Below, in pieces: positions 157 through 11,800 of a stretch of 64,000 nt of DNA. This stretch comes from Podarcis liolepis (Eukaryota): NCBI GenBank assembly GCA_965112155.1, contig OZ218098.1; one strand, given 5' to 3'. A program made the translations under genes and the position numbers. Each line of letters opens with the position of its first letter. Within the stretch, counting starts at the first letter, position 1. The notes under the pieces are model-generated. The model worked only from the letters and a program-made list of their open reading frames with translations, searched no databases and had not been told where the DNA came from.

Positions 157-3100
157 ATCTTCAAGTTGTTTTTCCAAAAGAGCTTTCTTTTTGCGAAAAT
201 CCATTATCATTTTCAGCTCAACTTGAATTAGGCCAATTTCTTTGGCCTTCTTGTTGAATTTTTCCTCCATCTCCTCCAACTGTTTGGTGTAATACTGTAC
301 CTGCAAATCAGAAACTTTTAGCAAGATTAAAAAAAAACCCTAATGGTGCAATCCTACCCTAGGTATCTGCTGGCCGAATGGCCTTTGGAAGTGGAAGAAC
401 TCCTTTTCCACTGGTGGAACTGAACCTACAGAGGCAGAACAAGCTATCCACTGCCAAAACCCTGTTGTTACACTGATGGAAGACCCTATCAGCTGAAAAA
501 TTACACCAGCAAAATCCCAGAGGTAGCGTTGCAGAGAAAAGGGTAGTGCATGGAGGAGAAGCATACTATCAGTGTTTGTAATTGCACACTCATATCCATG
601 AACATGGAGGAAATCTATGTGAGGACACAAACTGGCTTAAGTTCAGATTGTCCCACTGATTACCATGGGAGGAAACAGAGAAAAATGACCATTGCTCAGC
701 CCACCTGCAACATGCTTTCCCTGAGTTCTCCCCCTCCCCTCCCTAGTTGGAGATAGTTAGATGTTGCTCCAATTCTGCAAATTCCTGGACAAAGGCTTTT
801 TGGTAAGAGACACAGGTATGGCAAAAAACATTTTTTTAAAAATTCTGAAAAATGAGCATATTGCATTAGGATCAGCTTGATGTGTAGCATGTTTAAAAAC
901 AATTCACATTAAAGAGCATCACTAGGGAAGAGCGACCACTAAAGAACTAAAATAACTTAACAAAATTAAGCTTTAAATGATGACTTTTTAGAACCAATAA
1001 CAGTATAACAATTCCAAGTCAGTTCTACCTCCAGTTGCATAAGCCAAATGTTGATGAGAACTATATCTCTGACTCTAGGCATGCTTATTTAGTCATTGAG
1101 TTGAATGGAACTTAATCCCAGGTAGGGGTGTATTGCCATGAGGTTGAGTATTAACATACTTTGGACTTAGTTTTCCAATTTTTTTCTGGCAAATCCTGCC
1201 CCCCAAAAACAGTTAAGGTAGGATTGCCATACTCCCAAAAGTGAAAATCCGGACAACGTTGTTGAGTTTTTTTCTTCTGGGGGGAGGGGAGGAGAGGGGG
1301 GACAAAATTGTTAGGAACACACACACACCCCAATTATGTTTTTAGACTTTTAAAATGATTTTTAAAGCATTTCTTTTTAAAAAAGAAACCTCTACTTGCC
1401 ATACGTCCAGGTTTTCCCAGACATTTTGACGCTTCGGCAAAAATCCACCCAGATGCCATTTTCAGAGCCCGAACGTATGGCAGCCCTAGTTAAAGACTTA
1501 GTCATGACTTAAAGAGTAGAACCACTAGAGATTAGAAGATTAAATATATTTACTGTAAAACATTCTTGTGCAACTTATCTATTGTCAGGTACAACCCAAA
1601 ATGTGTTTAGTCTGGTTTTCAGTGTCCCATTGTACCAACAGAATCAAAAGACATGTCCATTCACCAGTTCATCATTCTCTTCTTTGGCTTTTTGCTTCAC
1701 CTCAATCAACTGCAGCTTTAGCTTCTCAATCTACATATTAAAAAAAGAAAATGAGGGGAAAAAATCAATCATTTTATGGATTGGAAAAATCCAGTTCAGG
1801 GCTCACATGGTGGAATGGAAGAACAAAGAGCTTTCCCAAGGTGAGGGTGTGTGACCTAGCTAAGCCTGACAGGACAGCTTTATAGTTTTGGTCCCTCCAC
1901 ACATTAATTAGATTTAAGCATGTTAGTTATATGAGGGTGATTATTTCATACTTTGTTCTCTATATCTTTCTTTGCAAAAGTGCTACAGTAGATAGGGTAT
2001 TTGCTGTGAAAGTCTTACAGTCAGTGGGCTGAATAAGTAGGCTGCTAAATTGTAAAGGAAAGCCAAACTATACATACTGAATGACACTCCATATTAGTAC
2101 TTTTGTACTATTGATTTTGAAGACCAATGGAAAATGAAAGGATAATAGTTTTGGCAAACACTATCTGTTGCAAAGAAAGAAAATCTAAACAGTGTTGAGG
2201 AGAAACACTTTCCTCCTCATCTAGTCAAAATAAAAAAATTCCTTCCAGTAACACCTTAAAGACCAACTAAGTTAGTTCTTGGTATGAGCTTTCGTGTGCA
2301 TGCACACTTCTTCAGATAACAAGTATCTGGTATCTGAAGAAGTGTGCATGCACACGAAAGCTCATACCAAGAACTAACTTAGTTGGTCTTTAAGGTGTTA
2401 CTGGAAGGAATTTTTTTATTTTGACTATGGCAGACCAACACGGCTACCTATCTGTAACTCCTCATCTAGGTTGTTTTTCCACTTAAAAAGTGTAGCAGTG
2501 GCGATTGCTCTGAAATTCTATGTCACGTCTCCATTCTGAAAGTACATGCCATATGACAGGTGTGGGGAACCTTTGGCACTCCAGATGTTCCTGAAGAGGT
2601 GGGTCCCAGCCTTTGGCCACTCTTGCTAGAGCTAAAAAGGCAACATCTGGAGGGTTAAAAGTTTCCCACACCAGTTTTAAGATTGCCTAATGAATACAAC
2701 AGCAATCAGTTCCTTCATTTTTATTTTTATTTTGGTTGTGGGGTTTTTTGTGTATACACACACACGTACACAGTGCTTTTTTCTGGGAGGACGCAGGGGG
2801 ACGCATACCCCTAAACATTTTGTGCATCTAAGTTTGGCCTCATTGAGGGGCAGTATTTCAATATGAGTAGGAAAGTGAGAGCACCCCTAAACATGTTTTT
2901 AGAAAAAGAGAGCACTGCATCTGTGCATAAAAACCGTGGAACTAGGCAGATTATTCTGAATTAGCTCGACAGGCTGGAAAGATCGTAGCCTTCAGCGTTA
3001 AGGGGTAGCAACTCTGCAAAAGGAGGAGGAAGTTCGCCTGCTGTTCCGCACCTACCAGATCTTCCTTCTCTATGTCCTGCCTCTTGAGGTAGCTCATCAC

Positions 3101-3506: not shown

Positions 3507-3920
3507 GTTTCCCCCTAGAAGCCACGCCGATGTTTTCCCTCGCGGCGGCCCGTTGCTACGGCAACCGGGCGTCGCGGGAAGATGAGGACGATGGCGGGCG
3601 CGCGCGCACGAGCGGGAGAGACGTCACGCGCGGTGTGTTGACGTGACACGCGGCACCGGCGAGATGTGGAAGGTTGAGGGCTCTGACAAGGCGGTGAGTG
3701 GAGAGGTCTGGACGGGGCAGCGCGTGGAAGTTCTTTCCCCGCCGGCTCAGGGGCGCGCGCGGGCCCAGCCCTGGAGAGCTCCCCCTGCCCCGGCCTTCCC
3801 GGCTCTGGTCTCTCCTGCTTCGGCAGCATTTGCCCTGTCAATACTCCGGCGGCGTATCACTCCGATACACTCAGATGCGTGCACACCCGACACGCGTCTT
3901 TCGGTAGGAATCCGGAGCTT
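3507..3920. promoter_or_regulatory. Bidirectional CpG-island promoter BBOF1/ENTPD5 with RFX X-box (3552-3565) and CRE/ATF-like half sites; probable ENTPD5 non-coding exon 1 donor GCG|GTGAGT at 3693/3694
   Basis: High CpG density ~3050-3930; near-palindromic GTTGCTACGGCAAC; ACGTCAC (3621) and TGACGTGAC (3639). Confidence 0.7.
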
Positions 3921-5533: not shown

Positions 5534-5827
5534 ATTATCCTGCCTTCCTTTGAAGTGCACAGAGTGGCACTTCACAGGGTAGTTGCAAGAATAAATTAGG
5601 TGTTTGGTGGAACCATAATTATGTCACAGTGGCTTGTGAAATCAGTTCAGCACAAAGAGTGTTGAGCCCAAGTTCAACTATTGATCATTATAATGGCTAT
5701 GCAGATATTTTAATCTAGATCTTCCTAGTCTTAGTTCAGCATTCTGTTGACTACACCACACTTGCTCTGTGGTATCATATAGTACAGGAGCTTCTCCTTT
5801 AGATTTTTGCAGTGAGAGATTTTTACA

Positions 5828-5919
5828 AAATAAAAAAATTCCTTCCAGTAGCACCTTAAAGACCAACTAAGTTAGTTCTTGGTATGAGCTTTCGTGTGCA
5901 TGCACACTTCTTCAGATAC
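5828..5919 (-). mobile_element. Penelope-like fragment (single arm) with a hammerhead motif at 5882-5919
   Basis: Near-identical to the left arm of the 2222 copy; 13-bp direct repeat AGAGATTTTTACA at 5815-5827 and 5920-5932; helix I GTAT/ATAC. Confidence 0.78.
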
Positions 5920-5936
5920 AGAGATTTTTACAGACA

Positions 5937-8826: not shown

Positions 8827-11800
8827 ATGGTACTTTCCTGGGCTGCAGTCATTGCTATGTTTGCGCTTTCCTCCATTTACTGCCTAGTTTCTCACCACGG
8901 CCCAGAGCTGTGGTTTCAAGACCTCTTCCCTTCCAAAGTGTGCCCTGCAAACACCAGCATGGATACGCTATATGGCATTATGTTTGATGCAGGAAGCACA
9001 GGGACACGGATTCACATTTACACCTTTGTACAGAGAAGCCCAGGTAAGATCACATGAGAAGGTTCTAAGCCTATGCTGTGGGGACCTTAGATTGTGAATA
9101 TATTGTATGCTTTTGCTAATTCTGATACCAATGATCTTACTCATCCTCTAAAAGTTGGAGAACTAGATGGAGTACTACTGTGACCAGCCATTGAAACTTT
9201 ATTCTGAGCTCTAGAGTTTCTTAATGCTTCATAAGCCTTTATTCTCAGAGCTTCTGTCTTGTTTTCTTTAACCTTTGATCAGTTTGTACATGTTTGCTTC
9301 TCTTCCTAGATAAAGTTCATTGTGGTTCAGTTGTACTGCTTAGTCATGCTTCTTTTGAGAGGGTGTTCAATTTAAAGTGGCTTTATCACGGAAAACAGCA
9401 GGGGATTTTGGTCTGAAATGTCTGTAACAGAGTGAAAATAAAAAAATTCCTTCCAGTAGCACCTTAAAGACCAACTAAGTTAGTTCTTGGTATGAGCTTT
9501 CGTGTGCTCATACCAAGAACTAACTTAGTTGGTCTTTAAGGTGCTACTGGAAGGAATTTTTTTATTTTGACTATGGCAGACCAACACGGCTACCTATCTA
9601 CTTCTGTAACAGAGTGAGTGTCGGAAAGGTGGGAACTTGATAGTGGTATGAGACGTATATTCACTTCTACAGTGAATTGTTAGGAGATTATCAGATAACT
9701 GTCAAACAAAACAAATAAGTTTTATAAAAGTTACTCTAGGCAGAGGGGAAGATGTTTTGTAACTTAGAAGGTGGCCTTGTTTCAATAAATGGATGAGTGG
9801 GGGGAGGGAATTGGGAAGGATCACCTTAGGACCTGGGTAGGCAAACTAAAGCCCGGGGGCCGGATCCAGCACAATCGCCTTCTAAATCCAGCCCGCCGAT
9901 GGTCCGGGAATCAGCATGTTTTTACATGAGTAGAATGTGTCCTTTTATTTAAAATGCATCTCTGGGTTATTTGTGGGCCATAGGAATTTGTTCTTTATTC
10001 TCTCTTTTCTTCAAAATATAGTCGGGCACCCCACAAGGTCTGAGGGACAGTGGACCAGCCCCCTGCTGAAAAAGTTTGCTGACCCCTGCCTTAGGACATG
10101 CTTGATAAATTTTTCAGTTCCTTATTTTGATTGCTTGGCCTTATCCAGATCAGCTTGCTTTGTCACGTTTCAATTAATTTTGTGCTCACTGGTTGCCCCA
10201 GTAATTCTTTTTACATCTGGATTTGCAGGGCTCAGAATTTCCTTTCCCAAAAGTATACTGAATTTGTCAGTTTGGCTGCATTTTGAAAACAAAGCCACAG
10301 TGGCCCATACTAGAACATTTTCTGTGTGAAAGAAATAATGATGTGTTAGATTGATGTCCTGTGAAACCAGTAAGTTCCTTTTGATAGATATGCACGCATT
10401 TGGGAAGATCAACTATTATAAAAGTTGTTTGGCTTGATTTTTGCAGAAAAACCTGCAGAGTTAGAAGGCGAAATCTTTGAATCAGTCAAGCCAGGACTCT
10501 CCGCCTATGCTGATCAGCCTGGAAAGGTAAGACATTCTGATGGCTTTTTGTGACTATTTGGCTCTCTTCCTCCCCACTCATTCTAAATTCAGTTTATATA
10601 ACATGAAGAAGAAAAAGAAAGCATAATGGGAAGGCGAGGAGGACAAAGAGGCGGGTGAGAAGTAGATGTTTTGCTGTACAGCACCATCAGTAGACATGGC
10701 GCTTGACACAGTTTAAGAATGGGGAGGGGGAGCTGGACAGGAGCTTACAATCTAGGATAACAGAAGAGGTAAGAGAGGGTGGGGCAAGAGGAACTTGGGG
10801 GGGTGGAAGGGACAAATGTGAGTAAATGCAGTTGCATGTACCTGCAACTTAGTTATAGGCGAGAACGAACTTACCAACATTTGTGTCTTGGATTTCTCTC
10901 CAACTTTAGGGAGCAGAAACAGTCAGACAATTGTTGGACATGGCTAAAGAAGCTGTACCGCCCAGTCACTGGAATAAGACCCCAGTAGTCCTGAAAGCCA
11001 CGGCTGGTCTGAGGTTGTTAGCAGAGCATAAAGCCCAAGCTTTACTCTCTGAGGTAACCTTAGGTTGTATTGCAAGGGGGTTGGCTTATTGTGTAAAAGT
11101 TGGGGGCATATGTAACAAGCTCTTTTCAGTGCTTGCCTATGTGCGGTTTTGCCTTGATTTTTTAAAAAATACTATACCAGTCTTGTGAGAGGCACTTGTA
11201 GATCCTACATCTGCTGTCACTATGTTTCAATAAATTCCTGTTTTATACCTGAATGCTGGGTGAAAGCGTTTGACTTGTGCTCACCTTGATTTACCTCCCA
11301 CTGTTTTTTGTACGGGAGGAAAATTATGACATCCACTCATCCATGCATAACCTAGTTTTTTCATTTCCACAGGTCAGGGCAGTCTTTGAGGAGTCACCAT
11401 TTCTAGTTCCTGATAACAGTGTTAGCATCATGGATGGATCTTATGAAGGTGGGTCCTGGGAGGCAGAAAATGGGAAGGAATGGAGGTGAGTTCGGGGAGA
11501 AAGAAAAGGGAGGGGATCAAGTGAGGGAGAATAACCACAGGAGCAAGAGGGAAGGAGTAGCATCTCCCCAGTGCCAAATGAAAGGTAAAATATTGCTGGT
11601 ATCACAGTGGCCAAACCACAATATCTTTCTTAGTCCCAAAGAGACGCTTTAAGTTTCCAGGGGAGAATTAGGTTCCATACACAGGAAAGCAACGAGTCTC
11701 CTTGGTTTTAATGGCAACATTTCATAATGCAAGTACTGTTAGATGAAAAGCAGTCACATAGTTTGCAATTAGAAGAAACTCAAGCAAAGGAAAAATTCAA

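Follow-up and report, generated by a model that had tools for sequence, protein, structure and literature searches.

How does a perfect hairpin with hammerhead ribozyme motifs on both strands arise inside an intron, and can its ribozymes act there? These questions are raised by a locus in the lizard Podarcis liolepis, within a 64,000-nucleotide stretch of contig OZ218098.1 (assembly GCA_965112155.1) that is referred to here as the window. As the initial annotation described, its two 97-nt arms (2222-2318 and 2331-2427) match each other exactly as reverse complements and enclose a 12-nt loop; the pairing reaches 100 nt if one mismatch is allowed. The folding energy of the hairpin is -186 kcal/mol (z = -27.6), a value equalled by none of 200 shuffled sequences. 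The insert is flanked on the plus strand by the 12-bp direct repeat that had been read as a target site duplication (TSD), at 2213-2224 and 2458-2469. Bases 2222-2224 are shared by the left copy, as its last 3 bases, and the left arm, and give 3 bases of microhomology with the element; at the right copy, the first 2 bases likewise match the element. The insert ends are therefore ambiguous by 2-3 bases. The insert is likely a non-coding stub left by a recent insertion of an abundant Penelope-like element (PLE), in which two cDNAs were probably joined and the hammerheads are predicted to be trapped and inert.

The insert is composed of two unequal copies of the same sequence. The short, tailless arm (2222-2318) lies on the minus strand, which is the strand of the host pre-mRNA, and corresponds to element positions +2 to about +97. 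The long, tailed arm (2330-2457) lies on the plus strand and corresponds to +1 to about +128. Between the two 5' ends is a junction filler (2319-2329), part of which is a short repeat of the bases at the element's start; its G2329 has no template in the autonomous element. The final 30 bases of the long arm (2428-2457, plus strand) form a one-sided 'tail'. In autonomous copies, the long open reading frame (ORF) has its first ATG at the position of 2427-2429. The arms are identical to each other and 98% like autonomous copies; compared to an autonomous copy, the first 123 bases of the long arm show one substitution and an additional T. The arm ends (2242-2407) also resemble the Rfam mir-559 consensus in sequence and shape (59.9 bits, cut-off 95), which is probably an effect of the hairpin.

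The plus-strand letters at 2329-2368 are as first read, GGTAT-CTGAAGA-A-GTGTG(CATG)CACAC-GAAA-GCTC-ATACC. They form a minimal type I hammerhead with its core at 2334-2340, an extra A at 2341, helix II at 2342-2355, GAAA at 2356-2359 and a palindromic AGCU, a layout that predicts cleavage after 2363. Within it, 2334-2363 has every feature given for the published form in the available text of Cervera and de la Pena (2014, PMC4209133): the core C3 U4 G5 A6 N7 G8 A9, G12 A13 A14 A15.1, a UH cut site, the extra base after A9, G10.1-C11.1 and a palindromic 15.1-16.1 stretch. The annotation had counted G2329 into helix I. The sequence is correct, but helix I has 4 bp in the element itself, and the autonomous element has a T at that position. 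The motif is also present on the minus strand, at 2283-2318 (core 2315-2309, helix II 2307-2294), where the hammerhead consensus places a predicted cut between 2286 and 2285. This copy keeps only 3 contiguous helix I pairs because its first base is missing. A loose hammerhead pattern matches three times in the window, once in each hairpin arm and once at 5887-5915, against 0.14 expected; none of 100 shuffles reached three.

The Rfam scan of 1800-2900 detected no hammerhead family at E <= 10 and gave miRNA-hairpin models only, all under the gathering score (best 66.7 bits, against 90); minimal hammerheads without helix III may fall outside the Rfam hammerhead models. Covariation of helices I and II is found between families, in older motifs of the same genome, and not among the variants tested within the young family. 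Across 15 older or divergent motifs, a set that includes one misparsed main-family copy and whose counts are not independent because the motifs are related, 56 of 75 helix II positions pair, compared to 29.5 +/- 3.8 in 2,000 shuffles (maximum 42). Helix II pair 4 is G-C in eight of these motifs, T-A in three and A-T in one, and helix I pair 3 is C-G in seven, T-A in two and T-G in two. In the young family, one helix II position was tested (65 matches, 2 from another family), and nearly all changes there are single and uncompensated, which is what neutral decay predicts.

The hammerhead belongs to an autonomous element. The arm consists of the hammerhead, ORF start and 'tail' of a PLE with intact ORFs, which bears out the annotation's reading of a young Penelope-like insertion. 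A 910-aa ORF that begins at the tail ATG and stops before the next hammerhead carries both an RVT_1 domain (441-586, E 1.3e-11) and a GIY-YIG domain (808-860, E 2.2e-5), each above cut-off, and thus supplies the expected link to a reverse transcriptase (RT) and GIY-YIG element. At loci found with an extended arm, the sequence upstream is the GIY-YIG C-terminus, and when this C-terminus was used as a query, 10 of 150 scored matches lay within 926-aa open frames. Eight regions contain 3,008-bp tandem units, with hammerheads spaced by 3,008 bp in L078, L079, L080, L082 and L085. The order of the unit is a TATA box, an initiator-like A 30 bases on, the hammerhead, a T-rich stretch and the ATG inside the 'tail'. 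Tandem and partial-tandem units forming pseudo-LTRs, a trait of endonuclease-positive (EN+) PLEs, are present. At locus L031, the arm is 99% identical to the window arm, tail variant included, and the GIY-YIG C-terminus lies directly upstream; the window long arm ends in a sister tail variant of the autonomous copy. Because the arm is joined to ORF-bearing units and to L031 in this manner, it is the front end of the element RNA and not a separate family. The protein (P0001) has a CX4CXXC linker upstream of GIY-YIG. In the available text of Craig et al. (2021, PMC8557442), a CX2-5CxxC motif between RT and endonuclease marks the Neptune and Nematis clades, and by this motif the element would be of Neptune/Nematis type. 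The family may already be catalogued in Repbase or Dfam.

The layout of the insert is largely that of its class. As described in the portions available of Craig et al. (PMC8557442) and Arkhipova et al. (2013, PMC3846280), EN+ PLE insertions comprise a head-to-head inverted, 5'-truncated copy, a one-sided tail of 30-40 bases and a TSD. The window insert shares this inverted truncated copy, the one-sided tail with the ORF start and the TSD, and the family shares the TATA box and initiator in the pseudo-LTR and the partial tandems. Unlike the published unit, both halves are here cut back to about 100-130 bases, such that the whole insert is one hairpin. The duplications are also 12-14 bp, compared to 8-10 bp in the rotifer examples given there, and the copy number is in the thousands, unlike those examples. 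The hammerhead resembles those of metazoan PLEs in PMC4209133 in its type I core, the extra base between 9 and 10.1, G10.1-C11.1, the short helix I and the palindromic 2-base insertion that replaces helix III. Its helix II is 5 bp within a self-complementary 14-base stretch, unlike the forms presented in that text. The same source mentions that most copies are truncated, and mentions opposite-strand pairs and reptile examples from turtle and snakes. Its opposite-strand pairs are 100-700 bp apart, whereas those here are separated by 12 bases, and the window family is unnamed in its main text.

Two more copies of the family lie in the window within 7.4 kb of the insert. The first (5826-5920, minus strand) is a single short arm with an intact core and a 13-bp direct repeat and has no adjoining antisense arm. 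The second (9428-9600) is a head-to-head short and long arm with an approximately 15-bp direct repeat and an approximately 80-bp stem. It is joined inside the hammerhead, and neither arm retains the CUGA core.

Genome-wide, the 24-base hammerhead core has 13,038 exact matches, and its reversed control has none. Head-to-head cores no more than 30 bases apart occur at at least 1,541 places. Among the first 50 junction loci listed, 48 pair a tailed with a tailless arm. A direct repeat of at least 12 bases flanks 42 of the 50 listed dual-hammerhead loci, 36 of these repeats being 12-14 bases, and none of 50 mismatched flank pairs has one. The pairing of long with short arms was counted over loci L036-L250 and the three window copies; L001-L035 were excluded because L001-L030 had been chosen with a tail-bearing query. 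A long and a short arm are combined in 93 of 97 head-to-head pairs, while the 86 unpaired arms are divided into 39 long and 47 short (binomial p about 1e-23 against the unpaired split). Short arms have their ends concentrated between about +87 and +100, whether or not they are paired.

Of all cores, 4,462 retain the next 10 upstream bases; two thirds lose homology within 10 bases, and by our own estimate ordinary decay alone would perhaps remove about a sixth of these upstream stretches. Exact starts number 2,360 at +1, 2,495 two bases earlier and 575 at +3, the last figure including point changes. The pile-up is positioned at an initiator-like A with a TATA box 30 bases before it. This is the initiator region, and run-off at the 5' end of the RNA is thus the likely cause. 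A further 2,204 copies are truncated further in. Among the first 100 of these listed, most start in helix II and 4 start at the cut site by manual reading; cut RNA is therefore a minor template at most. Stalling at RNA structure was rejected as a cause of the pile-up, as the ends are found past the 5' strand of helix I rather than short of its 3' strand. In the tandem units L078-L085, the sequence just upstream of the hammerhead can also be read as a branch point, a pyrimidine tract and a CAG acceptor whose last base is one position before the hammerhead. Helix I is where an intron ends in the Penelope element of Drosophila virilis (PMC4209133). The acceptor-like sequence may leave splicing as an alternative origin of the pile-up; no common upstream exon was found among the loose ends or junctions.

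A G precedes 1,537 of the 2,360 copies that start at +1 (65%). At control positions, among the first 100 copies listed for each, a G precedes 14 at -1 and 18 at +3, and it precedes the initiator A in only 103 copies. Among unpaired G-start copies, the extra G is seen in only 2 of the 4 that have a visible duplication; 5 further copies show no duplication. Templated fill could account for many of the junction Gs, and G is often the last base of a fill. These counts are no more than suggestive of a copied cap as the source of the extra G at +1, and G2329 may be one such base.

How could such a structure be made? In our preferred reading, the target would be cut with a stagger of 12-14 bp, and each target 3' end would prime at one of two fixed sites on the element RNA, about 30-35 bases apart. 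Both cDNAs would then run off the 5' end of an uncut RNA begun at the TATA/initiator promoter, and end joining with short templated fills would link the two cDNAs head to head. One start site per target strand is inferred as the simplest joint reading of the arm data and of the anole in vitro results described below.

This scheme resembles LINE-1 twin priming, in which both target strands prime on the element RNA and a 5' inversion results within one TSD. Priming from both strands and an inversion inside a single TSD are common to the two. In LINE-1, the second primer lies at variable internal places and the parts do not overlap, whereas here the two start sites are fixed, with 30-35 bases between them, and both arms are copies of one sequence. 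A nearer system is PAc, a Poseidon element of the green anole, described by Frangieh et al. (2024, PMC11167929). In the available text of that study, two adjacent internal RT start sites bound the tail, both target strands are cut and extended, uncut RNA is the main template and the hammerhead is dispensable for insertion in vitro. PAc belongs to Penelope/Poseidon and its ORF starts inside the hammerhead, whereas the ORF of the window element starts about 95 bases behind it and the linker is of the CX4CXXC Neptune/Nematis type, unlike PAc. Use of the two start sites one per strand is not reported in that text. A literature search, short of most subscription journals, also returned no published description of one-site-per-strand priming for PLEs. 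Beyond the papers cited here, only the counted long/short rule and the 5' pile-up are added here.

A single cDNA could also have given rise to both arms, either by folding back and copying itself or by self-priming on an antisense template, as has been proposed for rotifer Penelopes; the stub would be inert in this case as well. Such self-priming has been put forward in print for head-to-head palindromic junctions (PMC3846280), and the sequence that fills the junctions often repeats the first bases of the element, directly or as a mirror copy. In 60 of the 93 long/short pairs, the window locus included, the 5' ends lie within 10 bases of each other, as fold-back would have it. The window locus alone cannot separate two cDNAs from fold-back, because the ends of its two arms are no more than one base apart. 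More telling are the 33 pairs with 5' ends separated by at least 10 bases. The tailless arm extends further in 21 of them, and in 8 of these the excess is above 50 bases. A single cDNA that folds back cannot explain these 21 pairs, since a tailed cDNA lacks the extra 5' template and a tailless cDNA lacks the tail, although deletions at hairpin tips after insertion could mimic some unequal arms. The position of the short-arm ends, which is the same whether the arm is paired or not, also argues against fold-back, as does the cutting and extension of both strands by the anole protein in vitro (PMC11167929, available text). We regard a fold-back or self-primed origin as unlikely.

The two-cDNA reading can be extended to a dimeric RT-endonuclease that obligately pairs one tail-site with one tailless-site priming event, makes cuts staggered by 12-14 bp, runs off capped, uncut RNA to leave a cap-derived G such as G2329 and relies on end joining. 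We rate the chances of this fuller model as about even. If true, it would supersede antisense self-priming for head-to-head Penelope insertions and would account for the one-sidedness of the tail. An origin from two templates had also been considered from a diagnostic C/T difference between arms. The difference occurs only in loci picked by the window sequence and is absent from the 50 junction-picked loci, and was thus dismissed as a selection effect.

Whether the ribozymes can act depends on the stem. The initial annotation proposed a self-cleaving motif in competition with the duplex. With the hammerhead fold defined as helices I and II formed and the core open, in an equilibrium monomer model without protein, the stem is predicted to win outright. 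In full context, the model gives the fold a probability of 4.7e-45 for the minus (pre-mRNA) strand, 1.7e-43 for the plus strand and about 1e-42 for the nascent minus chain. The predicted cost of the fold is about 63 kcal/mol for the pre-mRNA strand and remains about 60 kcal/mol while that chain is nascent. Outside the hairpin, the probability is 0.07 for the isolated plus arm, 7e-6 for the isolated minus arm and 0.09 for the element's own 5' end. With arms placed head to head, the antisense arm is transcribed first from either strand; in the host pre-mRNA it would emerge first and zip up the ribozyme arm. A monomer hammerhead would be impossible in any case, because there is no helix III and a partner is needed, and dimer cleavage at the window locus is predicted to be blocked.

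The host is a minus-strand gene with four in-frame exons and GT-AG introns. The insert lies in intron 2 (1731-3055, minus strand, GT-AG), between coding exons 3326-3056 and 1730-1665. The annotation named the gene BBOF1; the placement in intron 2 of a minus-strand gene stands, and the name is only likely. Exon 4 has a sub-threshold match to Pfam DUF4515 (E 0.0037, 17.6 bits against a cut-off of 24.5), and exon 2 has no match in Pfam, PDB or Atlas. A genome-wide DUF4515 search returned three other places and not the short exons of the window. These three (G000 C11:168810-169376, C3:125714942-125715505 and C8:53154-53729) lie close to the ends of contigs as open frames without introns (350-371 aa), score above cut-off and may be retrocopies or coiled-coil look-alikes.

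An effect of the insert on this gene would require that the minus-strand hammerhead cut the pre-mRNA, with the help of a dimer or a protein, or that the stem draw ADAR or Dicer, and that splicing or output be altered as a result. The position inside intron 2 of an in-frame gene and the perfect, very stable stem are in favor of such an effect. ADAR typically acts on long intronic duplexes, of which this stem is one, and action of ADAR or Dicer on it is plausible on general grounds. Stem editing is also possible without any function. The two splice sites are some 490 and 600 bases away from the stem, and the folding penalty above weighs against cleavage, with even the isolated minus arm rarely folded in the model. 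In the available texts, minimal PLE hammerheads cut only weakly even as dimers (PMC4209133), and the anole hammerhead cut only once the element protein was added (PMC11167929); such help would be needed for any cut here. The host setting that had been put forward as special is that of one among at least 1,541 like structures, two more family copies lie nearby, and the helix II variants tested are nearly all uncompensated. An effect on the host is therefore very unlikely, and the window locus is likely an ordinary one without effect on its gene.

There is also a hint of an empty allele, which would count further against a host effect. In sequencing run X1, one contig spans 1860-2224 and ends at the TSD; the alignment of another begins at 2458, preceded by 18 letters that do not align. 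These 18 letters and the 12 of the TSD sum to 30, which is how far adjacent contigs assembled from 31-letter words are expected to overlap; this would point to an allele free of the insert, although X1 is possibly the source sample. Runs X3, X4 and X7 give no cover on the flanks at 1957-2211 and are uninformative on the allele state.

Copying of the hairpins as a unit, by which they would form a MITE-like or retrozyme-like non-autonomous family that propagates itself, is highly improbable and already largely refuted: at least 1,541 copies are alike in size and shape and non-autonomous hammerhead-bearing PLE derivatives exist (bioRxiv 10.64898/2026.07.22.740005, available text), but the sequence of the 50 listed junctions varies by locus, with few short fills recurring, and the arm ends vary too, so the hairpins were made anew many times. 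At other loci, the arms continue into the promoter and ORF, up to kilobases. The 12-14-bp duplications are also unlike the 2-9-bp footprint of DNA transposons. A MITE or miRNA precursor was rejected for its want of a fixed internal sequence, the junctions being variable, and for an Rfam miRNA score below gathering. Non-LTR retrozymes, as presented in the available text of the same preprint, are likewise non-coding, carry type I hammerheads and derive from PLE pseudo-LTRs. They are head-to-tail tandem arrays whose hammerheads are able to pair in cis; the insert here is a head-to-head pair, in which each strand holds one hammerhead and its full antisense, and with no head-to-tail tandem units at the window locus this class was rejected.

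The family is very young and very abundant and has intact ORFs, making it good material for the study of PLE insertion. The 93/97 long/short rule and the 5' pile-up are predictions that can be tested in the published in vitro system. The introns of this genome are likely seeded with many perfect hairpins of 90-100 bp, a large potential supply of double-stranded RNA.

Several minor observations accompany these results. At the predicted cut base equivalent to 2363, about a fifth of the family-wide contig depth in run X1 is T rather than C, and the share is similar in three other runs; this is a common subfamily with a UU cut site. Older hammerheads (L225-L231, L233, L237 and L250, around 1501-1533) have a 6-bp helix II and other helix I pairs. 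An exact pattern gave 30 matches, of which roughly half were variants of the main family, and puts these older forms at no more than a few dozen. By tblastn, an ORF end lies within 1.5 kb of only 2 of the 15 older hammerheads. Upstream of the copy at 9428-9600 is a GC-rich stretch at about 3550-3800, which may be a shared promoter, and the plus-strand gene may be ENTPD5, to judge from synteny. Intron 2 itself holds two further high-copy repeats, at 2556-2675 and 2771-2900. One of them is a small element with 34-base inverted ends (82%), and the other has very high depth in all four sequencing runs.
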